Shown: piece after piece, positions 4,435 to 56,135 of the stretch
Position numbering within the stretch: position 1 is the stretch's first letter
How the letters are laid out: every line of letters begins with the position of its first letter
Virus record (IMG/VR): IMGVR_UViG_3300034190_001539
Span: 37,286 to 101,285 of that record
Strand: one strand, 5' to 3'
Source of the DNA: a virus
DNA length: 64,000 nt
The notes under the pieces: generated by a model
What the model saw: the letters and a program-made list of their open reading frames with translations, nothing else
Told to the model about the DNA's origin: nothing
Databases searched by the model: none
Program-made: the position numbers and the translations under genes

Positions 4435-4680
4435 TTATCCTCCAAAGACTATAGCCATCGCCGTAGCGTGGTCAATTACAGATGAACCTTGTTCAAAGAT
4501 TCTTCCCTCAGCATTAATGTCAGCACCAGCTTTTAGTGTTCCAAATGAACCTGTAGATGTAGAAGAACCAGACACCAAAGCAAAAGATCCAGTAGATGTA
4601 GAATCGCCTACAAAGCTACCTGAAATCGTAAATGAACCAGTCAGTTTTGGATTTAGTTGTTTACTTCGTTGTAAAGCCAT
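4435..4680 (-). CDS. Short fibre-like protein with TGSF/SGS repeats and C-terminal AMAIVFGG
   Basis: 81-aa ORF with five [ST]GS motifs; shares the SGSxxSTGSFG module with the fibres. Confidence 0.65.
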   Translation of the reverse strand: MALQRSKQLNPKLTGSFTISGSFVGDSTSTGSFALVSGSSTSTGSFGTLKAGADINAEGRIFEQGSSVIDHATAMAIVFGG

Positions 4681-4936
4681 ATCTTTTCTCTTCTTTTACA
4701 CTCTCCCAATGACTTTTCATTGAGCGAGAAATTCTTTTTTTATGCTCTAAAGACTTAGGTTGTTTCATTTTCTCTATAGTCTCTAAAGAAATCTTTCTGT
4801 CCATCTGTGCACAAGATTTACATGCACTATTATTACCAACTGCTCTGTCAAAAGCATCTTTTCTTGAGTATGTCAGCATCTTTTTACAAGATGGACACTT
4901 TCTATTTTTTCTATCTTCCCAATGCCTTTTTCTCAT
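4661..4936 (-). CDS. Zn-finger (CxxC...CxxC) + NUMOD3-like DNA-binding protein
   Basis: CPSC and CKSC pairs followed by RKISLETIEKM / KSLEHKKRISRS NUMOD3-like motifs; no nuclease motif. Confidence 0.6.
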   Translation of the reverse strand: MRKRHWEDRKNRKCPSCKKMLTYSRKDAFDRAVGNNSACKSCAQMDRKISLETIEKMKQPKSLEHKKRISRSMKSHWESVKEEKRYGFTTK

Positions 4937-4940
4937 AGTA

Positions 4941-4948
4941 ATAAATAT
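4941..4948 (-). promoter_or_regulatory. Putative late promoter ATATTTAT
   Basis: Recurrent intergenic octamer; 4 nt upstream of the ATG at 4936. Confidence 0.55.
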
Positions 4949-4974: not shown

Positions 4975-6516
4975 CTACGAATTAAATTTTCCTTGCGCTA
5001 TTATTTCATCATCATCTTCTAAATCATAACCTATACTGGTTGTATTAACTATTAGGTGAAATGTAGAGCCTGCTTGTTGTATCGTAAGAGCATCATGTTC
5101 CATATACTGACCATTTATAAAAAATACAAAGTCTTGTTCATTAGTGGCAGTAAGTCCAGTTGGAGCAGAAGCTGTTACAGCAGTAAAACTAGCAGTTGAT
5201 GGTGCTGAAATAGAGTTAGCTTTTTTAACAAATTGTTTTCTCAAATAAGAGTTAGTATCACCTGTGGTTACTCCATCCACCGATAGAGATCCAGAAATAT
5301 TTACACTACCTGTAAATTGGTGCGTATCGTCTATTGTGTCACCAAATATAGTAGAACCACTTGATTGCATAACAGACATAGAAACAATGGATGATGATAC
5401 TATATAATTTTCTGCAAAAATATCACCTTTAACAACCCAATCAGTATTTACTTCAGCTTTACCATCATCTCTTTGTTTTATTTCAAATGATGTTGCTCCA
5501 ATATGAATTGCATTTGAAGCACTAACATTATTAAACTGAACTGTGCTTGTAGTTCCTACTTCTTGCCCAATAGAAAAGGTAAATTCTTTTTCCTGTGTTC
5601 CATCAAATTTTCCCTCACCGCCTATGCTGACTCCAGTTCCAGCTATTACCTGAAATGATTTATCCAAAGTACCACCAGCAGCACCTTGTTGTACGGATAT
5701 TTTTACATCTTTAGTCTTACTGTCTCCAACTAAGTTGGTTAGATTTACACTTACATCATCTCCTATTAAAATTCTTTTTGGTGTTAGTGTTTTTTGAGTT
5801 GTAAGAACTCTATTAAATTCTTCAGGTATTAAATAACCATTTAAAGTAACTGAAAAGTTTGTTCTAATCAGTCTTTCAGAATTTACAGAAACTTCACTAG
5901 CATCTGTATAATTATCTATTGTTGTTCTGAATTTAAATTTTCCATCTTCTCCCCAATAAGAACCCTCACTCCAAATAATCTTTTCTACAATCTTATTCAT
6001 TTGTTCTGTGTAGGTTGTCCATATAACAAAATCATAAGTCACACTAACATAATCAGGCACACCTACTGTGTATAATTCATTAACTTTATTTAAACCTTGT
6101 TGTACGGAAAATTTATCATAACGATTTTTTTCAGAATATTTTCTTTGGAATGTATAAAATAGTTTAGGGTCTTTAGGATCTAATTTATCAACAGACATAT
6201 TAGTATCTTTTTCAATAGATGTTCTTTTAAAAGCAATTAATGGTATTATTAATTGTTTTTTATTATCTACTAAATAACCATTTTTTTGTACCATAGCCCA
6301 TCTTTCAGGATTAGAATACATAAGAGGAACTTTAATAGATTCTCCATTTTCCTCAACCATTGGTTGGATTGTATTATTAAAGTAAAACATAATAGCTGCA
6401 TCAATATCCATCAACCCAACTGATATTTGTTTTACTGTATCGTCATCTCTCGACCTTAATCTACCACGATTTAATTTTTTCCTAGCAGAGCGAGGTATTG
6501 GTTTTTCACGAGCCAT
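4975..6516 (-). CDS. Tail completion/sheath stabiliser (T4 gp15-like) with C-terminal fibre-like extension
   Basis: Position after neck genes; N-terminal IKVPLMYSNPERW...PDYVSVTYDFVIWT...QMNKIVEKI...RTNFSVTLNGYL pattern. Confidence 0.6.
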   Translation of the reverse strand: MAREKPIPRSARKKLNRGRLRSRDDDTVKQISVGLMDIDAAIMFYFNNTIQPMVEENGESIKVPLMYSNPERWAMVQKNGYLVDNKKQLIIPLIAFKRTSIEKDTNMSVDKLDPKDPKLFYTFQRKYSEKNRYDKFSVQQGLNKVNELYTVGVPDYVSVTYDFVIWTTYTEQMNKIVEKIIWSEGSYWGEDGKFKFRTTIDNYTDASEVSVNSERLIRTNFSVTLNGYLIPEEFNRVLTTQKTLTPKRILIGDDVSVNLTNLVGDSKTKDVKISVQQGAAGGTLDKSFQVIAGTGVSIGGEGKFDGTQEKEFTFSIGQEVGTTSTVQFNNVSASNAIHIGATSFEIKQRDDGKAEVNTDWVVKGDIFAENYIVSSSIVSMSVMQSSGSTIFGDTIDDTHQFTGSVNISGSLSVDGVTTGDTNSYLRKQFVKKANSISAPSTASFTAVTASAPTGLTATNEQDFVFFINGQYMEHDALTIQQAGSTFHLIVNTTSIGYDLEDDDEIIAQGKFNS

Positions 6517-7008: not shown

Positions 7009-8175
7009 TTATCCTATATATATTGGATAAGGAACTTTAGCCAACTTTTCTTGTAGATATTCAGCTTCATCTTTATCAGCTTCTAAAAGAGCTTTTCTAC
7101 TTGTTTGGTCTAACATTTCCCTAAGTTGAGTTACTAATATCTCCTTTTCAGTAGACGCCTCTGTTCGTAAGGTGTCTCCATCTAATGTTGTTTCAGCACC
7201 AGGTATTGGAAGTGAAGCATATTTACTTCTTATTGTTCCCAATAATTCTTTACAAAGAGCTAATCCATATTTCTTAATCCACTGTTTACCAACTTCGTTA
7301 ATATTCGCAAAAGTCATATTGTCAAAAGGAGCGTTTGAAAAATCTGTTATTACACCATCCGATTTTCCTTGCAGTGTATTATTTCTATCTTGCTTTACCA
7401 AATATCTAAAATGAAGTTTATATTCGCTTGTAGGATTTGGAAAAATTCTAAGTTTATTATTAACCAATTCAAATGAGTAAGCAGATTTTCTTATCTGGTC
7501 ATTGAACTCAATAGCTTGAACCTTTAATAAATCAGCATACATCGGCATCATCATAAACTGAACGGCTGGTGAGTTGTTGCCCCAACCAAAAGAATCTAAC
7601 ATATTGTAACTACCATCACCTGTACCAGCATAAGGATCGAAATATCTAGTAACTGCCGGAGAAGCCTCATAAAATACTTTTCTAATCTCTATGGCATTAC
7701 CACTTTCAGATGGTTGTGCCCAAAGAGCGTCTAAATCATAAACTTGCGAACCACTTGATACTGCTATAGAACCACTTTTAAAATCTACTGTACCACCGAC
7801 ACCTGCTTCTGTTCCGTATTGTTCAGCTAACTGAATACTTCTACCAATAGTGGGTGTTAGTTTTCTGTGTGTTAAATCTGTTTTTGTAGCACCAGAGCCT
7901 GTATTTTGTCCTTGTAGTGCCAACATATTATCCCTAATATTAAACTGATTTACTTGCGCACTGTATTCTGTGATAGCTTCTTCATAACAAGCATAAAATT
8001 GTTCTTTCTGTAATTCAACTGCTATTATGGGAAAGCCTAATCTTTTAGCTGCCCAATCTGAAAATTTATCCACATTATGATTACTAGATCCCGAAAAGTC
8101 TGTATCTGTATCGTAAAATCCATATGGAGTATCACCAGTTGAAAATGAACTACTACCTGGCCAAATTGCTTCCAT
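7009..8175 (-). CDS. gp13: Neck protein (T4 gp13-like)
   Basis: KRLGFPIIAVELQKEQF and WIKKYGLALCKELLGTIRSKY...PGAETTLDG motifs; directly downstream of MCP. Confidence 0.8.
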   Translation of the reverse strand: MEAIWPGSSSFSTGDTPYGFYDTDTDFSGSSNHNVDKFSDWAAKRLGFPIIAVELQKEQFYACYEEAITEYSAQVNQFNIRDNMLALQGQNTGSGATKTDLTHRKLTPTIGRSIQLAEQYGTEAGVGGTVDFKSGSIAVSSGSQVYDLDALWAQPSESGNAIEIRKVFYEASPAVTRYFDPYAGTGDGSYNMLDSFGWGNNSPAVQFMMMPMYADLLKVQAIEFNDQIRKSAYSFELVNNKLRIFPNPTSEYKLHFRYLVKQDRNNTLQGKSDGVITDFSNAPFDNMTFANINEVGKQWIKKYGLALCKELLGTIRSKYASLPIPGAETTLDGDTLRTEASTEKEILVTQLREMLDQTSRKALLEADKDEAEYLQEKLAKVPYPIYIG

Positions 8176-8281: not shown

Positions 8282-9904
8282 TTAAACTTGATCGATGTCG
8301 GTTACAACAACTTTTCCGTAGAATTCTGGACGAACCATCTTCTTAGCGTAACGAGTCATCACACCTTTACGTGGAGTAAAGTTTTGAGGATCGTATACTA
8401 ACGGAGTCATAATCATCGGTACATATGGAGCATATACAGCACCAGTTTCTAAGAAATTGCTTCCTCTGAAACCAATAAGTATAGAATTATCCAACATGTA
8501 AGGATTCTTATAAACAGTATATCTGTTATTGATTGAACCAACAGCTTCAACACCCATAGCATAAGTTTTACCTTCTGCATTACCAGTATTAGCAATATAT
8601 CCGCTAACTGATTCTAAGATTGTAGCAGTTTCAGGTGAAACAACAACAAAATTAGCACCACCACGAAGTGTTTTCTGATGGATAGCATTAGAAACAGATT
8701 GTATCTTAATACCTAATGTTTGAAACCATTGAGATTTCGTATAAGCATTAGAAGCACCACTTATTTGTGAAAAAGCAGGTGCACCTGTTCCAGAACCATC
8801 ATACTCATAGCCAACTTTAGCTGACCAGTATGCTGTCTTAGCAGAAGCATTAGCTTTTAACATATCAAGGATTTCTAAATCGATTTCCATTGCGATGTAC
8901 TCACTTAACATAGCAGTTAGTTCAGCTTCGGCATCAACAGAATGATAAGCATTAAGATCCTGAGCAAGCTCTGGTGTCCATACAGCTTTTAACTTTCTTG
9001 TTTTAGCAACGATAGCTTCACTTCTTAACTGAATGTCTACTTCTGGAATCTCAAGATCATCAGCAGATGATGGTCCAGGTGTAGTAAACGAGCTCTGTTC
9101 AAAATCACCACGTTGAGTAGCAATTGGAGCTTCGTGATACTTAACACCAAAAAGTTGTCCATCAGCAGGTGTAATCTTAGCAAAGAAACTAGCAGTAGTT
9201 ACATTATTGACATCATCAACTACACTATAAGCTGGATAAACAGCTGTTACTCCAGAACCACTAAGTTCCCAAGCACGTATGCCATTGTAGTCAGGTCTAG
9301 TAAATAAACCAGCACCAACTGATACTTTTAAAAGTGTTCCATCAGCAACAGAAGCACTTAAATCAGGCTCAAAGTCTACATCTTTCCATGTAGCAGAACC
9401 AGTAGTCATACCAAGTGGCGTAATACCTTCAGCTTTTTTATCGTTGATTGAATATCCAAATTTGCCTGCACCATACAAACCACCACTAGCATCGCCAGAA
9501 CCTGAAGTATTACCAAATACATCAGAATTTTGATCGATTTGTGAGGAAGCAGAACCATATTTGAAGTCCAAAAAGAAAATCAGACCTGATGGTAGATTCA
9601 TCGGTTGTACACTAACAAACTCTTGTGCTGACAATTCACCAAAGATTCTACGAACCAATGGTAATGCAACACCAGACCACTCTTCTCTATCACCACCAGT
9701 ACCTGTCGCTGAAGCTTCTTTAATAAGCTGCGTTGCCTGGTTTTCTAAAAGAACAGCCATTCCCTGTTTCTTAGTGGAGTCATCGATTTCATCTAACAAT
9801 CCGGTCGGTTCCCATTTGTCGACCAGTTTCCTAGTCTGTTTGAGAAGCTCTTTGTGTGGGTTGTGCCCAGTCATCAAAGAGTTTAGATTATCAAAGTTTG
9901 ACAT
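8282..9904 (-). CDS. gp23: Major capsid protein (T4 gp23 family)
   Basis: LPLVRR, VSVQPMNLPSGLIF, AKTRKLKAVWTPELAQDL, YAPYVP, DPQNFTPRKGVMTRYA; predicted cleavage LIKE63|A64. Confidence 0.97.
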   Translation of the reverse strand: MSNFDNLNSLMTGHNPHKELLKQTRKLVDKWEPTGLLDEIDDSTKKQGMAVLLENQATQLIKEASATGTGGDREEWSGVALPLVRRIFGELSAQEFVSVQPMNLPSGLIFFLDFKYGSASSQIDQNSDVFGNTSGSGDASGGLYGAGKFGYSINDKKAEGITPLGMTTGSATWKDVDFEPDLSASVADGTLLKVSVGAGLFTRPDYNGIRAWELSGSGVTAVYPAYSVVDDVNNVTTASFFAKITPADGQLFGVKYHEAPIATQRGDFEQSSFTTPGPSSADDLEIPEVDIQLRSEAIVAKTRKLKAVWTPELAQDLNAYHSVDAEAELTAMLSEYIAMEIDLEILDMLKANASAKTAYWSAKVGYEYDGSGTGAPAFSQISGASNAYTKSQWFQTLGIKIQSVSNAIHQKTLRGGANFVVVSPETATILESVSGYIANTGNAEGKTYAMGVEAVGSINNRYTVYKNPYMLDNSILIGFRGSNFLETGAVYAPYVPMIMTPLVYDPQNFTPRKGVMTRYAKKMVRPEFYGKVVVTDIDQV

Positions 9905-18111: not shown

Positions 18112-18121
18112 AATTTGCCTC

Positions 18122-19699: not shown

Positions 19700-20085
19700 T
19701 ATATTTTTCCTAAGATAAATCCTATTCCTAACCAAAGATATTGATTCTCATACCATTTTGGTTTAATTACTTCTACTAATTCTTCATTAGTTTTATCACG
19801 AATTTTTAATAAATCAATTTGTTTTCTCTGAGCAAGCATTAATAAAGAATCTAATTTTATTTGTTCTTCTAATTGATTAATTACATCGTCACAATCAACA
19901 ATCGATTCTTTGTAGCCTTCTATCAATGAATCTGCTTTAGCTAATTTGCCTTCCCATTGTGCATCACGAGCTTTCAACATTTCTAATGCTTGTTCTTTTG
20001 TAAAAGAAGTTATTTCTTTTCCATCTTTTTGAATTGATTGTCCAAGTAAAGGAACTATTAATAATAGTGATAAAAAATATTTCAT
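19699..20085 (-). CDS. Secreted/membrane coiled-coil protein (signal peptide + C-terminal hydrophobic anchor)
   Basis: MKYFLSLLLIVPLLG|Q signal-like N-terminus; coiled coil; C-terminal KWYENQYLWLGIGFILGKI. Confidence 0.6.
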   Translation of the reverse strand: MKYFLSLLLIVPLLGQSIQKDGKEITSFTKEQALEMLKARDAQWEGKLAKADSLIEGYKESIVDCDDVINQLEEQIKLDSLLMLAQRKQIDLLKIRDKTNEELVEVIKPKWYENQYLWLGIGFILGKI

Positions 20086-45047: not shown

Positions 45048-46036
45048 TATACATCAAACCTCACTTGAATACCTAACAATAATTCTTTATCGTTTTTTAC
45101 AGGCTTTGCTAATTGTCCTATTGCCAATAATTCATTAAAATCATTATATAAACCAATCTTTGTAATATATGGTGCAAATAAAGAGTGTGTTGTAAAGTTA
45201 TTATATCTATCTGCTTGTCCATAGTAGTGTTTATAAGAGCCTGATTTAGCTGATGCATGACCAGGTGGAAATAGCCTCCAGCTTTCGGAACCTGAAACGT
45301 TTATGCTACCACTCCTATCAGGTGTAACTGATATATTTGTAGATGTATTATACTCATTTTCACCAACTATACAAGTATATGAATGTTCTTTAATTGTTAC
45401 TTGAGATTTGTATGTTAGACTATAACCATTAGCCGCACTTCCTGTTCCAATAGCATTGTATTGAGAAGTATCAGCCGAACCTGTATTTGTGAATACTAAT
45501 ATTCCTTGTTCGTAAAATGCGTTTCCAACAAAACTACCAGTTTTATCGATACTAGCGGTAAAATTACTAGCAGCAAATCTTGCAAAGCTAGAAGAAAAAT
45601 CATTATCATATAGATTTCCATTTCCATCATCTACAATTGTTAAAGTTGTAGGACCGCTATCGTCTTTTAATGTTATTGATTTTGGTTTAATTCTTTCACC
45701 ATATAAACTTTGTGGTACAGATATTACTGTAGCATTAGAATGTAACTCTCTAAATTGTTTACCATTACTCAAACCAAAGTTATTGAAATTATTATCAACA
45801 TCTTTATAGTATCTGTGATTTAACATAAACCAAGTTGGTACTGCATAAAAACTAGCAGTTGTTGGACTACCAAAGTTAGTAACAGTAGCAGTAGATGGAA
45901 TAAAGTTATGTAAACTAGAACTTGTTGCGGCGAAACCATAAACACCACTACCGCTATCCGTATTGGTTACAGTAAACTCTTTATAAGCTTTGAACGGCGT
46001 TATATTGATGTCTCTTGGGTCGAGTCTTTTAAACAT
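45047..46036 (-). CDS. Baseplate/tail-collar-like structural protein
   Basis: YGERIKPKSITL, DDGNGNL, GNAFYEQG; C-terminal YITKIGLYNDFNELLAIGQLAKPVK; paralogue of the next gene. Confidence 0.65.
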   Translation of the reverse strand: MFKRLDPRDINITPFKAYKEFTVTNTDSGSGVYGFAATSSSLHNFIPSTATVTNFGSPTTASFYAVPTWFMLNHRYYKDVDNNFNNFGLSNGKQFRELHSNATVISVPQSLYGERIKPKSITLKDDSGPTTLTIVDDGNGNLYDNDFSSSFARFAASNFTASIDKTGSFVGNAFYEQGILVFTNTGSADTSQYNAIGTGSAANGYSLTYKSQVTIKEHSYTCIVGENEYNTSTNISVTPDRSGSINVSGSESWRLFPPGHASAKSGSYKHYYGQADRYNNFTTHSLFAPYITKIGLYNDFNELLAIGQLAKPVKNDKELLLGIQVRFDV

Positions 46037-46054: not shown

Positions 46055-47122
46055 TTAGAAGTCTAATTTAACTTTAATTATAGCTTCTCTCGAATAAGAT
46101 TTCATCAGCGGTTTACTTAATTTAGCAATTGCTAACAGTTCATTATCATCATTATACAATCCAACTTGAGTTATAAATACTTTTGGATTTTTATAAAACG
46201 TTGGTACAGTAAAATTACCACTTGAACCAGAAGTAAATGTTGGATTTGAACTAAAGTTAAATTCCTTATTAGGTACTCTACAAAAATAATGCTGTGAAGT
46301 AATTACCTCTTCTCTTCTTGCCTGAAAGTATGAACCACCAGAAAGTTTATTGAAAAATTTTGCTGTATTTCCACCTTCTGAATTTGAAGCAACGGAAGCT
46401 GACAGTGAAGCAGAACCAGCACCACCTAAAACAGGTCCATTGAATATCAATATACCAGTATCAGGATAAAATAATCCAATTCCACCACCTGGTTGTAAAT
46501 TTGCGGCTGTTTTTACTGTCGCTTGTCCACTTGATATTGAACCACTAACTATGTTGAATACCCTACCACCTTGATTTACAGTTGGATTTGTTGTAGCATC
46601 ACTATCGTCAATATATTTTAATATTTGTGGACCTGAACCACCACCACTACCACTAAAGTGTAGTTCCCAATTACCTGGATCCATCTTCTCACGAAGTTGT
46701 TGTCTAGCAATTGAAATAGCATATATATAAGATGGTGTAGTATGAGCCCCATCGGAAGCTTCAAAAGTAAATCTATCTTCATTTGGCCCTAAAAGGATAT
46801 TAGACAATTGTCTGTATATGGTAGCAGACTCTCTATTTCCATCAACACCTAAAGCACCAGCACTACCACTTCCGTGTACGTGTCCATAAGCAACTGAAAA
46901 TTGTGTTGTGGCTGTAGCATCTGTTGTAGGATTCTTATCCCAAACATCTAAGTAATAAGTTCCATAAGATGCCTCAGCTGCAGAAGATGTGAAGAAAGAA
47001 GTTAATGTTCCTGCTCCATCTGCCCACATTCCCGAAGATACAGTGTCTTTGACATTTGTTACAACGTCACTTGATAGAGGACTATCGGGATCTTGAATGT
47101 TAAAATCTTTATATACTGACAT
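46055..47122 (-). CDS. Baseplate/tail-collar-like structural protein
   Basis: REKMDPGNWEL, GLFYPDTG; C-terminal FITQVGLYNDDNELLAIAKLSKPL. Confidence 0.65.
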   Translation of the reverse strand: MSVYKDFNIQDPDSPLSSDVVTNVKDTVSSGMWADGAGTLTSFFTSSAAEASYGTYYLDVWDKNPTTDATATTQFSVAYGHVHGSGSAGALGVDGNRESATIYRQLSNILLGPNEDRFTFEASDGAHTTPSYIYAISIARQQLREKMDPGNWELHFSGSGGGSGPQILKYIDDSDATTNPTVNQGGRVFNIVSGSISSGQATVKTAANLQPGGGIGLFYPDTGILIFNGPVLGGAGSASLSASVASNSEGGNTAKFFNKLSGGSYFQARREEVITSQHYFCRVPNKEFNFSSNPTFTSGSSGNFTVPTFYKNPKVFITQVGLYNDDNELLAIAKLSKPLMKSYSREAIIKVKLDF

Positions 47123-47882: not shown

Positions 47883-50800
47883 TTACTTTTTCTTTTGTTT
47901 CTTACTTTTCTTTCCTTTTATCGTCATTTTTTTCTGAGCTTTACCTTTAGACTCTATAGGTGAACTTTCAAATTTTGCTTCTTCTGCTATTTTTCTTCTT
48001 TCTTTTTCTTGAGTCTCTCTTATAATCATAGCATCTGTTATTGGTTTTTCTGGCGTACCACGTTTCTTCTTAGCTAAACCTTTAAGACCTCTTAATTTCT
48101 TTCCCTTTATTGTTAATGGTTTACCTGGAATCAATACTTCTTCAGAGGCTTGAGGTTCTTCTATTATGTTCGGATCGAATTTATCTTTTTCAGGTTCCTT
48201 TTCTTTAAATTCAGATACTATACCCTCTCCTGTTTTTAATGTAGAATCACTATCTTTAGTGGTTACTAACTTAGATGGTGCAGTTATAATTATTTCAACT
48301 GGTGAACCCCCATCTATAGTAGTTTTTTTAGTATTTTTAACTCCAGCATAAACTCTATTAAACAAAGCAGTATCTTGTTCTACCTGATTATCCAAATCAA
48401 CATTAAAGAGGGAAGAAGAATAAGCTATAAATAAAGAAGCACTTAATGATGAAGAGTAGTGTGGCATTATTTGTTGATTTCTACCATATATTCTAGATCC
48501 AGTTACTACAGGTTGAAATACTTCAGAATAGTGAATATCACCCGACTGAATAGATGCTGTCGCATAATATTTATCTCTACTCATACCATCACGCTTGTTT
48601 ATTCTTTGCCACATACTTAATTCTACAAATCCATCTCCAAGTGAAGCAGAAGCTTCTTTTAGTAAATTTTCACCGCTTGAAGATATAACTATTGATTCGG
48701 TTGAGTAACCATATATTTGAATTTCACCATCGTAAGCGTCATATTTTGAAATAGAAGCACCCGCATTAAATGAACCAGTTACAACAACCAATCCATCAAC
48801 TACATTCCCAATATCTATAGAAGAAGTAAAGAATGTATCCTCAACTTCAGGCTTTTTACCAACTACTACTTTTGGTCTTTCAAAAATATTAGGTTCTATT
48901 AGTAAACCAATATCCGGCTTTGCTCTAGCAGGAATCATCTTTCTTAATTGTGGATATAAAGATTGGTCATAATATTTTATCAATCTCATATAATCCCAAA
49001 AGTTATTTGTAGATGTATATTTTTTCCAATAAATATCTGTTACTCTTTCTAATCCTCTATATGAATTTTGTAATAAGTCTCTCGGGTCACCTAAATAATC
49101 ATTAAAATCCATATTACCAACTGAATTAATAATATCATTATTTACAACATCGGTTGGTGCAAAGAAAATACCGACTTTATTTGAATCTAAAGGTGCATTA
49201 TCATATGCGGGAGAAGTAGACCTTTTAGTTCTAGAAAGTATCTCACCAGGTTTTAAAGGATTATCCTCAACCCTTATTTTATTAGTAGTTCTTCTAAGTG
49301 CGCCTATACTTGGTATAAAAGATTTTTGTTCATCAACCACACTCCTAAAAAAGTTTCCTGTAAATCCACTATGTGAACCTGATAATGTAGAGGTTTGGTT
49401 AGAACTAACATCTCTAATACCCTCAGTATCGGAACTTAAATCTTTATTATCATTCATTGAATATCGTAAAACTAAATTTTCATAAGAAGATGATACAGAA
49501 TTACCATCGTAAGCCTTTGGATTAGCTATATGATTTTTAAATGATGATGTATTTAGTGTCTCTGTCCAATGTCTGTACTCCATAATTGAACCTGTAAGTG
49601 GTGCACCAATAAAACCATCTTTACTCGAACTAAAATTAGTCTCACCGCCGATATAAATATCACCATTGGATGAAAAATTTTCATTATTATCACCACTGCT
49701 GCCTGTTATAAGCATAGTTGTACTACTAAATAAATTTATCTTACTTCTACTACTATCATATTTACCAACGTTTAATTCGTATGATTGTGATATGTGTTCA
49801 CTATTACTTCCAGATTTTCTAGCCAACATAACAGAATAAAAATCACCATCATAAATAGGAAAAGAAGTAGATTCTATTTCATCATATCCACCAGAACCTG
49901 ACAACATAAATGCCACAGAACCATAATCATCCACAGAATCATTGTCTTTTAATCTTATTATAAAATCATTATCTTTATTTACCAAAATCTGATTAGAACT
50001 ACTTACTGCTCTAAATCTAAACTCAATCGTATCCGGCTTTCTACCTGAATCTGTATCATCAGCCCAAGCAACTTTTACATATTGATTTCCTTTAAAATCT
50101 AAAGCCTTTGTAAACTTCTTTGTGACTTCAAATTCTGGCGAAGCATCATCTGGTAAATTAGGCCCACCATATTCTTTAACTCTTAAAATAGTTGATGGTA
50201 TACCATAAATATTTATCAACCCTTTCAAAGCTCTAATAGTACCCTTATTCTTTAAGAAGAAAGGCATATTGTTTATTATACGACTCCAAATTTCTCTTGA
50301 TATATCACGTTCAGATGTCGCTGAGTAATCAGAGTAAGCTGAACCAGTAACTTCTTTACCTAAAGCATATCTTGGTAAATCAATTAAATCTTTCCCATCA
50401 TCCAAATTCCAACCTAAAGAACGACCAACAGAATATAATAAATCTTTTGAAATACCCTCTGTTAATTTTTCTCTTCTATCAAAAGTATCTGTTATTCCAT
50501 TTATATAAACCCATATAGAATCAAAATGTTGTCCAATCATATCTATAAATTTTAAGTATACATCGTTCTCTACATTTTCTATTATGTGTTGAGGAAGTAA
50601 ACTGCTTAATTTACTTGAGTTTTCTTCATCATAAAGTGAGCCAGAAGTTATTGCTTTATTGAACCAAGCTATACCATTGGTAGAGTTAGTAGTTTCTAAA
50701 ACATAAGGACTTCTTAAATTTCCCTCACCACTAGCTTTTGGCCATGCATTATCATATTCAATTCCTAACGAAGCGCTACTATAAGAAGAACTCTGATAGT

Positions 50801-53800
50801 ACATATATTTTTCAAATTGGTCAAAGTTATTTTTTACTTCCAATACTCCAACTTCAGCAGCATTAATAGAAGCATCTGAACCACTAATTCCAATAAACGA
50901 AGAACTTACTGCATTAAAATCCTCAATCTGTTTTAATTTAAGTTTAAAATTTCTTATTCTTTTTTCAACAGAACTAAATTTGATAAAATTTTCATACCTA
51001 CTATGGTCTATATTTAATTCAACACTATCTATACTCTGACTTAAAAATTCATTTTTTAATTCAGTTGATATTGTAACATCATCTGTTAATATTTCATTTT
51101 CATTTTTAAAGTCTGTTTTTCTACCTCTTATTGGACTTTCCACATTTTTCAAATCAGGTGATTTTAAAACTAATTGTGGTTCTTCTGCTGGAATAAAATC
51201 TAATATTTTTACCTTTTCTACTACAGGTTCTGCCATTTCTTTAACTATGATACACTCATCAAATTCAGCAAAGCTATCTGGCAAAGGTTCGTATAATTTA
51301 TAGACGACAGCGTGTGGGTAGTTTGAAACGTTTATCTTGTCTTGTTTAAAGTTAGTTGTTAAAAATAACTGATTATTGAATTTCAGATAAGTTCGTAAGT
51401 CTAATGGATTTAAATTTAAGTAAGTAACTCTAAAGTTTGGAAAACCAATGTCGGGTGGATTGTCTATATCATAAACTTCAGTATCAGGATTGTCATCTTC
51501 TACTCCTATGTCAATAGCATTTTGCTTATAACTTCTATCTAAAGTAACAAACAAACCATCGGGAGATACTTCTTCAATCTGTGCAGTAAATGGTCTGTAT
51601 ATTTTTTGAGTTACTGATTCATCTACTAATGTAAAATCCATATAAAGATTATCTACCCAAGTTATACCAAACTCTTGATTTCCATTACCCCTTATATGTC
51701 CGTAGAAATATATGTACCAATCTTGGTCTAAAATCCAATCATTTGGAATTAATATTTCTACATTTTTAGTTTCCCATTTACCAGCTGCGTCTGTAGGAAT
51801 AAATTCATATTGGTGTGCATAACTATATCTTGGTGGTGCTATAACATTTTCTTCCCATATTGCTAGTACACCATTCCATTTCCATAAACTACCTGGACTT
51901 AGAGTTCCATCTTTAGTTGGATTTGGATCGAAACTATAGACAGAGCTTCCATTATCATAATATGGTTCATTTACATTAATAACCTCACCATCTTCGTTTT
52001 GAATACCATAATTATCTGCGCCAGGATTTCTAGACCCAAAGGTTAAATCGATTCCCTCTGAACCAACCTCTCCTGCGCCATAAAAGTATTCATTGACTGG
52101 AAACCTTTCTGAAACTCCTTCTGATTCATCTTCTTTTAAATTAATCCACTGTCCACCATTTTCTGCAGTTACACCATAAATTCCACTATAATTAGAGAAG
52201 TGACCACTTGTGTGTCCTTGAGAAAACCAAACATCAAAATAGTTTCCATCTACGCCAGCAAAGCCATTACTAAAAGAACCTGCCTCTCCATTCTCATCTT
52301 CCTCAAACCAAGTATCTTGATTGGTAGAGAATATATCACCATCACCATCATTCGTTCTCCATCTTTTATTTGTACCCTTTACACAGGCATAATGGTGCCA
52401 AGTACCACCACTTCTTTGTTTTCCAGAAAAAGCCCATTCCATTTCACCACCTTGAGCATTAACAGTATCATTAAAAGCACCATCTAAATCTTTTAAGTAA
52501 AAGAAATCTACAAAATCTTCTGCTCCGATTTCAGCCATAAATACTTTATTTGAATCTTCATTTCCACGGCCATCTGTATAAAACAAAACAAAGAAATTAT
52601 CTCTGTTGTGATCGTTATTTGTAGCCCTTGTTCTTGTTATACTTTGTATTCTACCGTGTTCAAATATATCGTTATAGACTGTGTGTGTTTTTATTTGATT
52701 TCCATCACTATCTGTCTTAGATATTGTTTGGCTGTGTAACTGAGGAAACATAGTGTCAATTGTGGTTAAACCAATCTTTTCTTTATTTGTAGTATATCCA
52801 ACATCACCAACAACCCAAACTAAATCATTCTTTATTAAAATAACAGCATTGTTGTTTACAAGTTCCGCTGGCACACCACAAACAGTAGTCATTTTAGTAT
52901 CTTCGCCATCCAATGTTGTACCTGTTTGCCATCCTCTATTTTCACCAGGATAAATATCTCTTTTGAAGCGTGGTGTTCCTTGTCCTTCTAATTGATAAGG
53001 ATGAGTATTCACCGCTTCTGGATATTCAAAATCATTTACTGTTCCTACCGGTGCTGTTGGAAATGAAGGGAAAAAATCAGGATTCGCACCCCAAGCAGTG
53101 CCATCCCATTTCCACTCTTGCTCTAAACTTAAAGTACCTGCTTTACTATATTCTACACCAACTAAATTTGGACTCCAAGTAAAAATTGGATTTTGTCCAC
53201 CAGTGCTTTGAGTTATTATCCAAGCGCCTTCCCCACCCCAAAATGTTGTCGAATCACCTACACTTATATCTACTTCAGGTGCACCTGATAAATACAGACT
53301 GACAACAGTAGAGTATTTAGATGGTGGTTGATCCTCAATGTCTGAAGCATTTGAAGCTGTATTCGCAATATATCCCTGTGGAGGATCATTTGGAACTTCT
53401 TCACCTGGTGGTGGATTATTAGGATTGTAATATCCTATAGGCGGAGCATCAGGAATATTTTCTGTTATTAATTCATTTGGATAATATAAAGATACTAAAA
53501 TACCCCTTCCTGCAACACTAGCCTTTAAATCTAATGTTAAATTAACAAAGTCAAAATGTTTAACTCCCTGACCTATAAGAGCTCCCATCTTTTGATTTAT
53601 ACCCAACCAACGACTTGCATACTCCGTTGGCCATTCGTCTAATTCTCTAAAGATTTCATTTTGGTCGGGAAATTTCATACAAACACCACCAGTAACGCCC
53701 TCACCTCTTACAAAATGTGCGTGGTAGCCTAAGTGCGCTGTTCCAGCAAAAACTCCATTAGGATTGGACATACTATTGTAACCAGGACTAAAACCATCCA

Positions 53801-54683
53801 CCCTCACAGCTTTAGAATGTAAACTTGCATCCCAACCATAATAATTAGCTAAACTGACTTCATTACCATAAGAATCTCTTTCAGTAATTTCAAGGTCTGG
53901 ATTAGTTATAAAATTTATTCCTGTTTTTACAGGTGTTTGAACTTCGTTTACTAAGAAAACATTTGGTATGGTAATAGTACCATTCTTCATTTTTTGTGTA
54001 AATAAAAATCCATTTTCAGCTGGTGATATATTTAAAACATTAGATTCAAATAAATCAGCGTTGCTTCCATCTGGTGCAACAAAATTAATAGTTTCCTCAA
54101 TATCATTTGCTGTTACAGCAGTTTGTATATTTATAAAATCATCTGTATAAGAACCTTTTATATTTTTTGCTTTTAATCTAACTTCGGTTCTATTTGGAGA
54201 TATAGTATCAATTGAATATTTTAAATCCTCTACGCTTAATTGTTCAGCAGTTCCAGGACTTGATCTAAAAGACTCTTCTGTTCCTGTGTATACCTTACCA
54301 TCGGGTTGAATATTAAAATTAGCAGTATAAACATCTCCTTCAAATCCTGCTTTATTTCTAACTAAAACTGCTCTTTCATCACCAGCTAATTTTCTAAAAA
54401 AATTATAATTTACATTAAATATTCCATTATTAAATCCGAGCTCTCTTAAATGATTTCCTACATAAAATTCTATATTTCCATTATCAGCGTTATTTATAAA
54501 TTTATCACTAGGTAAATTTGTAAAATCTATTAAATTATTTGAATCATCATAAATTTCTAAATAAGCAAAATCATTATGACCTTGAGTTCCCCACAAACCA
54601 TTTTCATATGGTTTTTCTCCAACCCTTTTAGTTTGAAAAGCATTGAGTAGTTGTTTATCTCTTTCGTTTAATTTACTAGCCAT
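47883..54683 (-). CDS. Large baseplate wedge protein (gp7-like) with LamG/carbohydrate-binding-like domains, 2266 aa
   Basis: FIDMIGQHFD...KNKGTIRALKGLINIYGIP wedge motif; IMEYRHWTETL...LVLRYSMND LamG-like; follows gp6. Confidence 0.65.
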   Translation of the reverse strand: MASKLNERDKQLLNAFQTKRVGEKPYENGLWGTQGHNDFAYLEIYDDSNNLIDFTNLPSDKFINNADNGNIEFYVGNHLRELGFNNGIFNVNYNFFRKLAGDERAVLVRNKAGFEGDVYTANFNIQPDGKVYTGTEESFRSSPGTAEQLSVEDLKYSIDTISPNRTEVRLKAKNIKGSYTDDFINIQTAVTANDIEETINFVAPDGSNADLFESNVLNISPAENGFLFTQKMKNGTITIPNVFLVNEVQTPVKTGINFITNPDLEITERDSYGNEVSLANYYGWDASLHSKAVRVDGFSPGYNSMSNPNGVFAGTAHLGYHAHFVRGEGVTGGVCMKFPDQNEIFRELDEWPTEYASRWLGINQKMGALIGQGVKHFDFVNLTLDLKASVAGRGILVSLYYPNELITENIPDAPPIGYYNPNNPPPGEEVPNDPPQGYIANTASNASDIEDQPPSKYSTVVSLYLSGAPEVDISVGDSTTFWGGEGAWIITQSTGGQNPIFTWSPNLVGVEYSKAGTLSLEQEWKWDGTAWGANPDFFPSFPTAPVGTVNDFEYPEAVNTHPYQLEGQGTPRFKRDIYPGENRGWQTGTTLDGEDTKMTTVCGVPAELVNNNAVILIKNDLVWVVGDVGYTTNKEKIGLTTIDTMFPQLHSQTISKTDSDGNQIKTHTVYNDIFEHGRIQSITRTRATNNDHNRDNFFVLFYTDGRGNEDSNKVFMAEIGAEDFVDFFYLKDLDGAFNDTVNAQGGEMEWAFSGKQRSGGTWHHYACVKGTNKRWRTNDGDGDIFSTNQDTWFEEDENGEAGSFSNGFAGVDGNYFDVWFSQGHTSGHFSNYSGIYGVTAENGGQWINLKEDESEGVSERFPVNEYFYGAGEVGSEGIDLTFGSRNPGADNYGIQNEDGEVINVNEPYYDNGSSVYSFDPNPTKDGTLSPGSLWKWNGVLAIWEENVIAPPRYSYAHQYEFIPTDAAGKWETKNVEILIPNDWILDQDWYIYFYGHIRGNGNQEFGITWVDNLYMDFTLVDESVTQKIYRPFTAQIEEVSPDGLFVTLDRSYKQNAIDIGVEDDNPDTEVYDIDNPPDIGFPNFRVTYLNLNPLDLRTYLKFNNQLFLTTNFKQDKINVSNYPHAVVYKLYEPLPDSFAEFDECIIVKEMAEPVVEKVKILDFIPAEEPQLVLKSPDLKNVESPIRGRKTDFKNENEILTDDVTISTELKNEFLSQSIDSVELNIDHSRYENFIKFSSVEKRIRNFKLKLKQIEDFNAVSSSFIGISGSDASINAAEVGVLEVKNNFDQFEKYMYYQSSSYSSASLGIEYDNAWPKASGEGNLRSPYVLETTNSTNGIAWFNKAITSGSLYDEENSSKLSSLLPQHIIENVENDVYLKFIDMIGQHFDSIWVYINGITDTFDRREKLTEGISKDLLYSVGRSLGWNLDDGKDLIDLPRYALGKEVTGSAYSDYSATSERDISREIWSRIINNMPFFLKNKGTIRALKGLINIYGIPSTILRVKEYGGPNLPDDASPEFEVTKKFTKALDFKGNQYVKVAWADDTDSGRKPDTIEFRFRAVSSSNQILVNKDNDFIIRLKDNDSVDDYGSVAFMLSGSGGYDEIESTSFPIYDGDFYSVMLARKSGSNSEHISQSYELNVGKYDSSRSKINLFSSTTMLITGSSGDNNENFSSNGDIYIGGETNFSSSKDGFIGAPLTGSIMEYRHWTETLNTSSFKNHIANPKAYDGNSVSSSYENLVLRYSMNDNKDLSSDTEGIRDVSSNQTSTLSGSHSGFTGNFFRSVVDEQKSFIPSIGALRRTTNKIRVEDNPLKPGEILSRTKRSTSPAYDNAPLDSNKVGIFFAPTDVVNNDIINSVGNMDFNDYLGDPRDLLQNSYRGLERVTDIYWKKYTSTNNFWDYMRLIKYYDQSLYPQLRKMIPARAKPDIGLLIEPNIFERPKVVVGKKPEVEDTFFTSSIDIGNVVDGLVVVTGSFNAGASISKYDAYDGEIQIYGYSTESIVISSSGENLLKEASASLGDGFVELSMWQRINKRDGMSRDKYYATASIQSGDIHYSEVFQPVVTGSRIYGRNQQIMPHYSSSLSASLFIAYSSSLFNVDLDNQVEQDTALFNRVYAGVKNTKKTTIDGGSPVEIIITAPSKLVTTKDSDSTLKTGEGIVSEFKEKEPEKDKFDPNIIEEPQASEEVLIPGKPLTIKGKKLRGLKGLAKKKRGTPEKPITDAMIIRETQEKERRKIAEEAKFESSPIESKGKAQKKMTIKGKKSKKQKKK

Positions 54684-54991
54684 TATAATTCCTCAAAATC
54701 TCTGTCTAATGTGCTATTAATACTAGCTTCATCATCTCTTAATTTATTTACAATTGAAGTGTGTACTATCTTTGTAGAAGGATCTTCTGGCAATACACCT
54801 GTGTATGGATTTTCAAATATTAAAATTGTACCATCACTATCTCTGACTAACAAAGAACCATCATTTGATGAGCCTGAAATAGAAGCTTGCGCTTCTAAAA
54901 TATCTTTATTAGCAAGGTACGCTTGTTCATCTTCATCGATTAAATTCTGGTACCAGGATAAATTTTTTAATTCCTCTTGTGTATATGGCAT
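54683..54991 (-). CDS. Hypothetical baseplate-module protein
   Basis: 102-aa ORF coupled to the next gene. Confidence 0.6.
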   Translation of the reverse strand: MPYTQEELKNLSWYQNLIDEDEQAYLANKDILEAQASISGSSNDGSLLVRDSDGTILIFENPYTGVLPEDPSTKIVHTSIVNKLRDDEASINSTLDRDFEEL

Positions 54992-54995
54992 TTTT

Positions 54996-56135
54996 TTATC
55001 TCACAACTTTAAATACGAAATCTTCATCAAAATATTGTATTGTCTCCTCGTCTGTTCCACTACCACTAACAACCTTAAATTCAAATTTATAATATCTTTC
55101 TGATTGAAACCCATTCATCCATAGATTAAAATAGTTTCCTGTGGAATCGCAACTTATAGCAGAGCCTGAACCAAATGGAATAATAACATCATCTGTCTGA
55201 TCGTCTATTACCGAATAGTAAGCACCATCACCACCAATCTGTTCTTTACTTGCGCTTGGAAAATATTTTACTGTCAAATATTCAGAGGCTGTATTTGAAT
55301 ATGATTTTGTAGGATAGCGACCTCTTCCAACTATTCTAAATTTTATTTTAGATTTTTCTTTATATTCAGGTCTTAAACTTTTCATATAGAAAACAGCATC
55401 TTCTAATTCAGCTGACGATAGTGGACTTAAAGAACCTGTACTAAATTTTGTATCATACCACTCAACTTCTAATTTTGGTGGGTAAATTGTATTGGTTTCT
55501 CTCGAAAAGAAAGAAAAGTTTCCTAACCTATCTTTACTTCCCTCATCTGTATTACTATCTAAATTTCCCAAACTACCACTTCTTTTGATTATAAAGCCGT
55601 TATTTGGATAAACTTTTGTTAGCCAATCACCTACTATAGGCGTAACATCCATTCTCATATCTCTCGTTTCAAATTCAAAAGATTGAGATGCGTATGATGA
55701 TGAGAACCAAGCACCACCTGAAGAAGAAACTGCGGCATCTTCTGCTCTTCCCCAATAAGTTTTCTCTGTAATACCATCTCTAAACTCCCAAGTTGCTCCT
55801 TCTTGAGTCTTTGGATTATCAGCTCTATATCCTTCACCTGGAACCCAACTAGCACTTATAGGATAAGCAAATAAAGATTGACTATATGATAATTCAGTTG
55901 GATTTGCATCATACATATTTAAATAAAATTTGGCATCACTAGCTATCTGTCCTCTAACCATTGACCTAGAAACTTCAGCTAAATCAAATTTAATTAGTAT
56001 TCGAGAAACTCTTACATTTCCACCTGACTGATTCATAGTTTTTTCTATTTCTAATATCTCATCAAGTCCTGTGTTTCTACTAGCAGAAGCTTGATATAAT
56101 GTAGTATCAAACTCTGGAAAAATAAAATAATGCAT
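54996..56135 (-). CDS. Baseplate-associated beta-sandwich protein (DNRLRE-like N-domain)
   Basis: DTTLY...RNTGLDEILEI...SRILIKFDL...NNGFIIK...FFSRETNTIYPPKLEV. Confidence 0.6.
   Translation of the reverse strand: MHYFIFPEFDTTLYQASASRNTGLDEILEIEKTMNQSGGNVRVSRILIKFDLAEVSRSMVRGQIASDAKFYLNMYDANPTELSYSQSLFAYPISASWVPGEGYRADNPKTQEGATWEFRDGITEKTYWGRAEDAAVSSSGGAWFSSSYASQSFEFETRDMRMDVTPIVGDWLTKVYPNNGFIIKRSGSLGNLDSNTDEGSKDRLGNFSFFSRETNTIYPPKLEVEWYDTKFSTGSLSPLSSAELEDAVFYMKSLRPEYKEKSKIKFRIVGRGRYPTKSYSNTASEYLTVKYFPSASKEQIGGDGAYYSVIDDQTDDVIIPFGSGSAISCDSTGNYFNLWMNGFQSERYYKFEFKVVSGSGTDEETIQYFDEDFVFKVVR

Follow-up and report, generated by a model that had tools for sequence, protein, structure and literature searches.

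The window, by which we mean the whole stretch of 64,000 nucleotides analysed here, encodes capsid, neck, baseplate and fibre proteins of an uncultured marine T4-like phage in which one tripeptide, [ST][GAS]S, recurs. This raises the question of whether the tripeptide is a true motif and, if it is, what keeps it in place. A first-pass annotation of this DNA had proposed that it is a sequon for a phage-encoded enzyme that glycosylates the virion surface. The features that bear on this question are as follows:

1..4107, minus strand: giant (Gly-Gly-Thr)n fibre, N-terminal 1369 of 2704 aa, proline-free
4435..4680, minus strand: 81-aa protein, 5 sites (TGSF, SGSF, TGSF, SGSS, TGSF), the highest motif density in the window
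4975..6516, minus strand: gp15-like tail-sheath stabiliser, 7 sites
7009..8175, minus strand: gp13-like neck protein, 5 sites (~1.5 expected)
8282..9904, minus strand: major capsid protein, gp23-like, 6 sites
16306..19735, minus strand: portal and large terminase, 0 sites each, negative examples
25063..26859, minus strand: 598-aa tail fibre with a Peptidase_S74 (endosialidase-chaperone) C-terminus, 12 sites (3.3 expected)
26884..39195, minus strand: 4103-aa giant fibre, 63 sites (~30 expected)
45047..46036, minus strand: 329-aa outer baseplate protein, fold not recognised, 12 sites (2.5 expected)
46055..47122, minus strand: 355-aa paralogue of the 329-aa protein, 7 sites (~3 expected)
47883..54683, minus strand: 2266-aa wedge protein, 25 sites (~9.5 expected)
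54996..56135, minus strand: 379-aa baseplate protein, 10 sites (~3 expected)
56135..58084, minus strand: gp6-like inner baseplate wedge, 1 site (~2.6 expected), negative example
63311..64000, minus strand: right-edge open reading frame without a Pfam, PHROG or PDB-sequence match

The hand counts on which the proposal was built are almost exact for the 329-, 355-, 598- and 81-aa proteins, the gp13-like protein, the capsid protein and the giant fibre, as well as for the 379-aa protein (10 sites, claimed ~9), and the six capsid peptides that had been listed are all present. Terminase, portal and primase indeed have no site, and the 1051-aa protein and gp6 have one each.

Across all proteins of the window we counted 166 sites. 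Shuffling was done over whole proteins and within blocks of 30, 15 and 10 aa: whole-protein shuffles gave 65 expected sites and 10-residue-block shuffles ~80 (z ~10), with the highest shuffle total at most 110. The excess over shuffled controls, which the first-pass annotation had put forward as a check, is present. Particle proteins that face outward carry the tripeptide at two to six times chance level, and the rest of the window, beyond ten enriched proteins, shows no excess (~14 sites, ~18 expected). Ser, Gly and Thr abound in the enriched proteins, which would favour composition, low-complexity sequence, repeats within proteins or a DNA motif as the source of an artefact, an explanation to which we give almost no weight. 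Composition and low complexity are ruled out as the cause by the shuffles in 30-, 15- and 10-aa blocks (80 in the 10-aa blocks, which keep local composition, against the 166 observed). Many different 9-mers, with diverse codons, encode the tripeptide, so the signal lies at the protein level and a DNA motif is ruled out as well. All-against-all BLAST and Pfam searches were negative for internal repeats and shared domains, which removes these as a cause: no Pfam domain or BLAST homology was found to link the enriched regions, the sole paralogues are the 329- and 355-aa proteins, and the 4103-aa giant fibre has no internal BLAST repeats at E<1e-3. When all regions shared between proteins are excluded, 139 sites remain against 57 expected, and the claim that unrelated proteins share the tripeptide therefore stands.

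The enrichment is specific to certain residues in a certain order. SGS occurs 56 times in the window against 13 expected (4.4-fold) and TGS 31 times against 10; the alanine variants SAS (20 against 9) and TAS (13 against 6) are enriched as well. SGT (4 against 10), SGG (11 against 12), SGA (7 against 8) and NGS (3 against 7) are not, and neither is SGN. Position 3 is Ser-specific, and Thr opens one third of the sites. The residue at position -1 is hydrophobic at 56-65% of sites against a background of 30%, a flank preference that is absent from control tripeptides and so specific to the full motif, whose shape is hydrophobic - Ser/Thr - Gly/Ala (sometimes Ser) - Ser - hydrophobic. The spacing between neighbouring motifs peaks at 6-7 residues (16 cases, ~1 expected). 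By these measures [ST][GAS]S is a real, ordered short linear motif common to proteins that have no detectable homology to one another.

Within single proteins the motif is confined to particular regions, as had been claimed for the gp15-like and wedge proteins. In the gp15-like protein the C-terminal extension (residues 332-450) holds all 7 sites and the Pfam core (55-181) none, and 24 of the sites of the 2266-aa wedge fall in residues 1200-2200, with 1 in the first 1200. The 6 sites of the gp23-like capsid protein are all at residues 118-240, a variable insertion region, and the conserved HK97-type core has 0. The 4103-aa giant fibre has sites along its whole length, densest at residues 400-1400, and the 2704-aa (Gly-Gly-Thr)n fibre has 4 motifs in its first 60 residues (ISGSS, TSGSF, ISGSA, STGSF), ahead of the repeat. 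The regions that bear the motif are the capsid insertion, the outer sheath (residues 100-250 and 400-550), the neck, the gp15 C-terminal extension, the C-terminal half of the wedge, the outer baseplate and the fibres. It is absent from the tube and the enzymes, and no excess is seen in this phage's beta-rich inner proteins.

Relatives of this phage differ in where the motif stands. Flavobacterium phage immuto, whose genome is complete, is equally enriched (130 sites, 63 expected). The sheath of this phage has 9 sites and that of immuto 10, with no column shared, and 49 sheaths together use 99 alignment columns for their motif sites. The immuto homologue of the 355-aa protein also has 7 sites with 0 columns in common; for the 379-aa protein, 5 of the 10 motif columns are shared with the immuto homologue. 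Three of the 5 gp13-like sites are shared with Microcystis phage Mel-JY01 and none with immuto, and T4 gp13 has none. In the capsid region that carries the 6 sites, immuto has 3 and Mel-JY01 5, each sharing one column with this phage, and T4 gp23 has 0. Among 120 marine homologues of the 329-aa protein (mean identity 0.71), 7 sites never vary, save that their middle residue may be S, A or G. Alignments such as these indicate that the number of sites is kept while positions turn over among distant homologues, and that close homologues strongly conserve the sites. The T4 family is depleted of the motif (25 sites against 55 expected overall, 2 against 11 in sheaths); 28 T4 proteins and 21 T4-like loci lack it as a feature, which rules out a generic property of T4-like virions or fibres.

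An AF2 model of the sheath places several sites at the ends of strands. Sites 100 and 139 each end a strand just ahead of a loop of 2-3 residues; 131 and 153 stand at strand starts. SGS 551 caps a conserved helix (N-cap), a site that reads GS, GT or DY in other sheaths, and SSS 747 is inside a helix. The sites fall in the least conserved regions of capsid and sheath, at hairpin boundaries in the sheath model, with exposure judged from T4 homologues. We propose that the motif marks strand-to-loop boundaries where virion domains face outward and evolve fast, in many non-homologous proteins of this phage and of a very large aquatic T4-like group.

Such a placement would also fit a purely structural role, in which hydrophobic-S-G-S-hydrophobic is the tight hairpin or short-rung turn of one kind of surface beta domain that has spread among outer virion proteins of this clade, possibly as a decoration module or as rungs of a hexapeptide-like beta-helix, and carries no modification. 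We regard this as a real possibility, if not the one we would choose. Besides the strand/loop boundaries and the conserved helix N-cap, it is favoured by the peak in spacing, by the invariance of sites among close homologues, by the full-strength motif of immuto, which lacks the glyco enzymes of this phage, and by a module, HQFTGSV-x-I-[ST]GSL, found both in the gp15 extension and in the giant fibre of an unrelated contig: the extension contains the double unit QFTGSVNISGSL, and the giant fibre of locus L106 the near-identical HQFTGSVSITGSL. A turn would not, however, explain the strict Ser at position 3, given that the turn-favouring SGT, SGG, SGN and NGS are not enriched, nor why neither beta-rich inner proteins nor any T4 virion protein shows an excess. 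The turnover of positions at constant density and the lack of a Pfam or BLAST link between the enriched regions also count against it. LR756508 and L100 have sheaths of this family with no site at all; together with the variable residues at the helix N-cap, this means that the fold does not need the motif. The structural turn had been raised as an alternative in the first-pass annotation itself, and two sheath sites, the N-cap at 551 and the helix interior at 747, do take ordinary positions in the structure.

We then turn to the enzyme that might read the motif. For the glycosyltransferase that had been placed at the right edge, searches of Pfam, PHROG and PDB with the open reading frame at 63311-64000 gave no supporting match. 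A glyco cassette does lie 5 kb left of the window, and it includes a 1277-aa enzyme with a BAHT (bacterial autotransporter heptosyltransferase) domain of the Aah/TibC type; an FkbM methyltransferase and a TobZ/NodU-like carbamoyltransferase domain are part of the same protein. The BAHT enzymes of bacterial adhesin systems form a dodecameric ring and move heptose from ADP-heptose onto Ser. The cassette also has GT2 and sulfotransferase genes; around the BAHT gene are the giant (Gly-Gly-Thr)n fibre, a 257-aa protein and the 81-aa protein at 4435..4680, which belongs to this glyco/fibre cassette. The latter has no homologue in immuto or Mel-JY01 and no PHROG or Pfam match, and a second motif-rich 81-aa protein (4 sites) is encoded left of the window. 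No autotransporter is present next to the BAHT gene in the cassette neighbourhood, and no gene for ADP-heptose synthesis was seen in the 101 kb of this contig.

The 1277-aa protein scores 257.9 bits on TIGR04414 (equivalog cut-off 200), compared with 29.6 bits for RfaQ and 18.5 bits for heptosyltransferase III among LPS-type models, and a PDB search returned TibC (4RAP, E=4e-51) and no match to WaaC/WaaF at E<1. In TibC the catalytic base is Asp110, the sugar is bound by Lys230, Arg286 and Trp305, and the iron finger is formed by Cys339, 342, 358 and 370 (PMC4358343). An HMMER alignment to 4RAP shows that Asp110, Lys230, Arg286 and Trp305 are all kept; Thr226 is replaced by Ser, and Pro300 by Ser as in Aah. 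The LGD motif and the Trp of SGLxW are invariant across 9 phage homologues, as are the four iron-finger Cys residues, all of which align. The phage BAHT domain begins at TibC residue 67, leaving out ~65 residues of the N-terminal beta-barrel; residues 1-97 of TibC form a flattened beta-barrel that touches the partner protomer. Judged by its sequence, the 1277-aa enzyme is a bona fide, intact Aah/TibC-type protein O-glycosyltransferase accompanied by tailoring enzymes. DNA hypermodification is a less likely job for the cassette because the enzyme is an Aah/TibC equivalog and not T4 beta-GT-like, although phage glycosyltransferases can place heptose on 5hmC (bioRxiv 2023.12.21.572611).

The Aah/AIDA-I and TibC/TibA pairs of E. 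coli are the closest known systems: the acceptor is a Ser that opens the loop of a strand-loop-strand in a beta-rich surface protein (PMC4358343, PMC3835316). The phage enzyme resembles them in being a TIGR04414 equivalog of the cytoplasmic type with catalytic and iron-finger residues kept, and in both cases the substrate gene, a candidate one in the phage, adjoins the enzyme gene and the substrate has an over-represented Ser-Gly tripeptide, SGG in AIDA-I. It differs in having fibres nearby rather than an autotransporter, in its fused domains and in the loss of most of the N-terminal beta-barrel; further, the phage tripeptide is [ST]-[GA]-S, not SGG, and motif and enzyme occur separately.

Is the motif, then, the sequon of the phage's own Aah/TibC-like heptosyltransferase, which would coat the whole virion? 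Several observations would agree with this: the enzyme is intact and an equivalog, and its own cassette holds the proteins in which the motif is densest genome-wide, namely the 81-aa proteins and the N-terminus of the giant fibre. In 80 BAHT loci the genes adjacent to BAHT are the most enriched, with an [ST]GS excess by gene distance of 3.4, 2.6, 2.6, 1.8, 1.3 and 0.8, and sheaths of one family average 7.2 sites when adjacent to BAHT and 5.4 when not, a weak trend; phylogeny and the structural module are confounders of both the gradient and this difference. Fibre-like genes beside BAHT are enriched in other lineages too: those of L004, L005 and L008 have 16 sites (4.5 expected), and a 508-aa protein of Mel-JY01, of a BAHT lineage, has 13 [ST]GS (2.4 expected). 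Yet the complete genome of immuto encodes neither a GT9/BAHT protein nor a homologue of even one of the five enzymes of the cassette, and the sheaths of five BAHT-bearing jumbo/huge phages have 0-3 [ST]GS against ~1 expected. As immuto is enriched without BAHT and the jumbo phages have BAHT with motif-free sheaths, the enzyme is neither necessary nor sufficient, and we rejected it as the cause of the clade-wide motif. Many other enriched contigs also lack BAHT, although most viral contigs compared are 6-42% complete and absence calls on them are weak. AIDA-I, a genuine BAHT substrate, is enriched in SGG (27 against 4 expected) and NSG and not in [ST][GAS]S, and the ~65 missing residues of the TibC beta-barrel count against this explanation too, which we consider improbable.

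What the enzyme does travel with is a fibre. Proline-free Gly-X-Ser/Thr repeat fibres occur in 37 of 80 BAHT loci against 1 of 80, and the clearest genomic partner of BAHT is this repeat fibre, not the dispersed motifs. In this phage the first targets of the Aah/TibC-like enzyme are probably products of its own cassette, the (Gly-Gly-Thr)n fibre and the two 81-aa proteins, with the 2704-aa fibre the likeliest primary substrate. The fibre next to BAHT is Thr-based and Thr opens one third of the motif sites, which speaks against glycosylation, as TibC acts on Ser, not Thr (PMC4358343).

A second candidate is the gp90-type glycosyltransferase of immuto. Both immuto and Mel-JY01, which are complete and motif-rich, have multi-glycosyltransferase islands, and the gp90-type gene is found in these two, in the near-complete G030 and in LR756508, whose sheaths have 0 sites; it has no match on the 55%-complete contig of this phage. 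Since the motif-free LR756508 carries it, it is insufficient as a shared reader. In the PDB, gp90 comes closest to the PBCV-1 glycosyltransferase B736L, though weakly (E=0.0016), and as a GtfA/GtfB-like pair gp90 and gp91 also have weak PDB matches only. The co-occurrence of motif and glycosyltransferase that the proposal called for thus fails for BAHT and is not supplied by gp90. Of the proposed sequon, the ordered motif of outer or variable virion parts and an encoded protein O-glycosyltransferase stand, and its link to a particular enzyme does not, given that neither BAHT nor the gp90-type enzyme tracks the motif and that AIDA-I uses SGG/NSG.

Variation between lineages that is independent of any single enzyme, together with apparent restriction to the surface, could also mean that the motif has a non-covalent role (in hydration, against aggregation, in binding polysaccharide or mucus weakly, or in evading a host sensor, for instance), with no modification. 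This role would hardly account for the strict third Ser and the hydrophobic flanks, and we think it distinctly unlikely.

Our tentative preference is for the motif as a set of acceptor loops for phage-directed glycosylation by an enzyme other than BAHT. Selection would keep the motif as an acceptor or recognition site for post-translational modification directed by the phage, the candidate chemistry being O-glycosylation of exposed Ser by soluble phage glycosyltransferases. Modification would take place in the cytoplasm, before or during assembly, and give the particle a glycan coat; the Aah/TibC-like enzyme would not have shaped the clade-wide motif. Two parts of this mechanism, the attachment of a sugar and the identity of the enzyme that would recognise the motif, we infer. 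Glycosylation is plausible but unproven, because relatives without BAHT are equally dense in the motif and phages with BAHT can lack it. In a broader version, a very large and abundant group of T4-like phages of sea and fresh water would use their own soluble glycosyltransferases to put O-linked glycans on the outside of the particle, from capsid and neck to sheath, baseplate and fibres. The hairpin loops of the form hydrophobic-[ST]-[GA]-S-hydrophobic would be the places of attachment, the sites would drift like viral glycan-shield sequons, and some lineages, among them that of this phage, would add an Aah/TibC-derived cassette for proline-free Gly-X-Ser/Thr giant fibres. This version is somewhat unlikely to hold in all its parts.

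Acceptor-loop glycosylation of this kind would have partial parallels elsewhere. GtfA/GtfB carry out cytoplasmic O-glycosylation of Ser in the short Ser-small-Ser repeats of serine-rich-repeat surface adhesins; they differ in being of the GT4 family, in their Gram-positive hosts and in acting on long low-complexity repeats rather than isolated loop motifs. Glycosylation of mycobacteriophage virions by enzymes of the phage is the subject of Freeman et al. (2023, cited in PMC12582341). Glycans are reported there to have been shown chemically on C-terminal extensions of siphovirus capsid and tail-tube subunits. As proposed here, soluble glycosyltransferases encoded by the phage would act on the parts of virion proteins that are exposed, but the present loops are candidates, dispersed over many proteins of a myovirus. 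In chlorovirus PBCV-1, virus-encoded enzymes glycosylate the capsid at atypical sequons (PMC4691112, PMC7019647). Virus-encoded cytoplasmic machinery and non-canonical acceptor motifs on the major capsid protein are points of likeness; the PBCV-1 glycans are, however, N-linked on Asn, the virus is eukaryotic and its enzymes are unrelated in sequence to those of the cassette.

If the motif is a sugar site, a large share of ocean and lake T4-like phages would be glycoprotein over their whole outer surface, virion glycosylation would reach beyond a few mycobacteriophages into a group that is abundant worldwide, and models of environmental phage adsorption, stability, aggregation, grazing and decay would change. 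Whatever the chemistry, three residues suffice to tell outer from inner virion regions in these phages, a help in annotation. Our literature search found no paper on phage Aah/TibC-type enzymes or on an outer-virion tripeptide, and to our knowledge such enzymes are otherwise known only from adhesin operons of proteobacterial pathogens. Aah/TibC-type glycosyltransferases were found in at least 584 IMG/VR stretches and in 4 of 50,697 deposited phage genomes; they are common in environmental phages, where they accompany giant collagen-like Gly-X-Ser/Thr fibres.

The window comprises the right-hand 64 kb of one viral contig of 101,285 bp (G+C 33%; completeness 55% by CheckV estimate), whose genes are all on the minus strand. 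PHROG and Pfam matches identify the virus as a T4-like myovirus: they cover a capsid protein of the gp23 type, neck proteins resembling gp13 and gp15, a wedge resembling gp6, and a fibre that ends in an endosialidase chaperone. Among deposited phages the closest to it are Flavobacterium phage immuto and Microcystis phage Mel-JY01, whose capsid genes share only ~68% nucleotide identity with its own. Homologues of its 329-aa baseplate protein number 477, many of them in Tara and other marine assemblies. ORFs are simple longest-ORF calls, and the viral contigs compared are mostly fragments.

The first-pass annotation had counted the tripeptide [ST][GAS]S by hand and read it as a candidate phage-wide glycosylation/modification sequon of the external virion proteins. 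On recount its numbers are essentially exact, and what it said of separate domains within the gp15-like protein and the 2266-aa wedge also holds. Proteins of the window contain 166 sites, while 73-80 are expected (z ~10-11) from shuffling within blocks of 30, 15 or 10 residues, which preserves local composition and ignores secondary structure; taken singly, each enriched protein is significant or nearly so. A scan of all tripeptides returned SGS (56 vs 12.7 expected) and TGS (31 vs 9.5) at the top, plus a few giant-fibre words. SAS and TAS are ~2-fold over expectation, and SGT, SGG, SGA, AGS and NGS are at or under expectation in the window proteins. In 56-65% of sites the preceding residue is one of V, I, L, F, M, Y and W (background 30%), and the following one is hydrophobic in 44-57%; the control tripeptides [ST]G[not S] and [not ST]GS display no such preference. 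Motif pairs with a spacing of 6-7 residues are ~16-fold over-represented. The motif is encoded with every Ser codon family and three Gly codons, and is thus selected at the protein level. As had been claimed, it is common to proteins without mutual similarity: BLAST among the ten enriched proteins matched only the 329- and 355-aa baseplate proteins, which are paralogues (window 45047-47122), and with this pair set aside there are still 139 sites vs 57 expected. No Pfam family covers any of the enriched regions.

The motif is real and ordered; it is confined to outer regions and varies from lineage to lineage. The capsid protein has six sites in this phage, three in immuto and five in Mel-JY01, all in poorly conserved residues 110-250 and none in the conserved core, with one column common to this phage and each relative; T4 gp23 has no motif sites. 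When 49 sheath proteins are aligned, 246 of their 442 sites fall between residues 100 and 250 and 135 between residues 400 and 550, where conservation is lowest, with near-zero sites in the conserved N- and C-terminal core and 99 different columns used. These variable sheath and capsid regions presumably face outward, as judged from the T4 gp18 and gp23/gp24 structures. The 329-aa protein has 12 sites, of which 7 do not vary across 120 homologues (mean identity 0.71), and S, A and G are the only residues seen in the middle position.

In an AF2 model of the sheath (pLDDT 75), sites 100 and 139 are the final strand residue ahead of a 2-3-residue loop, sites 131 and 153 are at strand starts, site 747 is inside a helix, and site 551 caps a conserved helix, a position occupied by GS, GT or DY in other sheath family members. 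A purely structural role as a hairpin element is possible, and nearly as likely as the role as a post-translational acceptor that we tentatively regard as the best explanation. The acceptor role is favoured because the Ser is strict, the sites are restricted to outer domains and turn over at kept density, and the motif is dispensable for the fold. T4 virion proteins (n=28) have no excess (motif 39 vs 46, [ST]GS 8 vs 16), and 21 T4-like loci hold fewer copies of the motif than expected (25 vs 55 in total; sheaths 2 vs 11); it is therefore not general to beta-rich proteins of myoviruses. Full-length sheaths of this phage's own family (n=71) have 309 [ST]GS vs 92 expected, and a second sheath family (~575 aa) has 4-6x expectation. 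LR756508, an uncultured 484-kb phage, encodes two tandem 824-aa sheath paralogues of this phage's family (L305, 202514-208420) with no [ST]GS in either, and together with the sheaths of viral locus L100 these show that the sheath fold does not need the motif. The capsid gene region of LR756508 matches the window at 75% nucleotide identity over 200 bases. The motif of immuto is slightly different, with SGT and DGS also enriched, which, speculatively, would fit different enzymes in different lineages.

The ORF that had been proposed as a glycosyltransferase at the right edge of the window matches nothing in the searches run. A cassette of ~21.6 kb, absent from immuto and Mel-JY01, encodes the enzymes described here:

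Cassette features (all minus strand)
Genome 20573-42221 (L002, L022): cassette inserted between the sheath and gp15-like genes
Genome 20,940-32,013, left of the window: packed five-gene set of GT2 + DUF5672; carbamoyltransferase; sulfotransferase-containing protein; carbamoyltransferase N-domain protein; 1277-aa fusion
Window 1-4107, on leftward to genome 33278: 2704-aa proline-free (Gly-Gly-Thr)n fibre (G 42%, T 25%)

The cassette holds GT2 + DUF5672, three carbamoyltransferase units, a sulfotransferase, an FkbM methyltransferase, an Aah/TibC-like domain, the giant fibre and small proteins, among them two motif-rich 81-aa proteins. Its GT2 and carbamoyl-, sulfo- and methyl-transferases resemble Nod-factor tailoring, with NodU at 150 bits, well under the 1000-bit cut-off. 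The fibre triplets are mostly GGT, GAT and GQT with GT register breaks, and the C-terminal 330 aa form an ordinary globular or coiled end; the gene lifts G+C locally to 53%, vs 33% for the genome.

Residues 1-325 of the 1277-aa fusion match TibC (4RAP, E=4e-51), with no LPS heptosyltransferase structure among the matches of the PDB search, and the protein passes the NCBIfam equivalog model "autotransporter strand-loop-strand O-heptosyltransferase" (BAHT; 257.9 bits, cut-off 200). It is without ~65 residues of the N-terminal barrel. The catalytic Asp, the sugar-pocket Lys/Arg/Trp and the four iron-finger Cys (residues per PMC4358343) are all kept, and are invariant in nine phage BAHT homologues. 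The acceptor sites of TibC are the Ser in QN-S-GG-AV and NT-S-AA-V (PMC4358343), which broadly resemble the phage motif. In an 812-aa protein (L002:940-3378), residues ~43-237, ahead of the GT2 domain, form a second, partial BAHT-like N-lobe, with weak tblastn matches to the BAHT regions of Mel-JY01, L003, L006 and L007 and 19.5 bits to TIGR04414.

It is improbable that this BAHT reads the motif across the virion; the evidence on such a link points in both directions. Among ordinary (not low-complexity) proteins of 80 BAHT loci, the excess drops from 3.4-fold to 0.8-fold as genes lie further from BAHT. Fibre-like genes adjoining BAHT in other contigs (L004, L005, L008) are enriched (16 vs 4.5 and 14 vs 4), as is a 508-aa Mel-JY01 protein near BAHT (13 [ST]GS vs 2.4), and BAHT-adjacent sheaths have 7.2 sites vs 5.4 in non-adjacent ones (p=4e-4, phylogeny ignored). 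An AIDA-I gene beside aah displays the same kind of signal in SGG (27 vs 4), but not in [ST][GAS]S (13 vs 11.5). Yet the complete genome of immuto, which lacks GT9/BAHT and homologues of all the cassette enzymes, is equally enriched (130 vs 63; [ST]GS 66 vs 20), the most strongly enriched sheath loci have no BAHT in the assembled sequence, and five BAHT-bearing jumbo/huge phages (three 84-100% complete) have sheaths with 0-3 [ST]GS vs ~1 expected and no excess nearby. These cross-phage comparisons are few and phylogenetically non-independent. More probably, the Aah/TibC-like enzyme serves its own fibre cassette rather than the whole virion. What accompanies BAHT is a giant, proline-free protein of Gly-X-Ser/Thr triplet repeats (mostly GTS, GSS and GTN), present in 37 of 80 BAHT loci vs 1 of 80 sheath loci.

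BAHT is common in IMG/VR (at least 584 stretches) and rare in deposited phages (4 of 50,697); a literature search turned up nothing on phage BAHT enzymes or the [ST][GAS]S motif. In uncultured viruses (loci L103-L182) Aah/TibC-like genes are often directly beside a tail-sheath gene. A 1204-aa neighbour of BAHT in L152 has 33 [ST]GS vs 4.8 expected and NNAFG-x-x-AL repeats, which may resemble YadA-type head repeats.

Immuto is not a clean negative, since it carries an 11-kb island of five glycosyltransferases and amino-sugar enzymes. Its gp90-type enzyme, a candidate reader of the motif, is also present in Mel-JY01 and in the motif-rich, near-complete viral genome G030, and equally in LR756508, with its motif-free sheaths.

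Two further ORFs of the window relate to Mel-JY01. A basic 75-aa ORF (11101-11328, starting MAIKVVVKNNN...), flanked by the prohead genes and the scaffold/capsid operon, lies, as judged by eye, where Mel-JY01 annotates ribosomal protein S21; tblastn against Mel-JY01 gave no match at E<1e-5. The C-terminal part of a 1262-aa protein (21230-25018) is 39% identical to the Mel-JY01 'cytidylyltransferase like protein', whose gene is ~3 kb downstream of the Mel-JY01 BAHT fusion gene.
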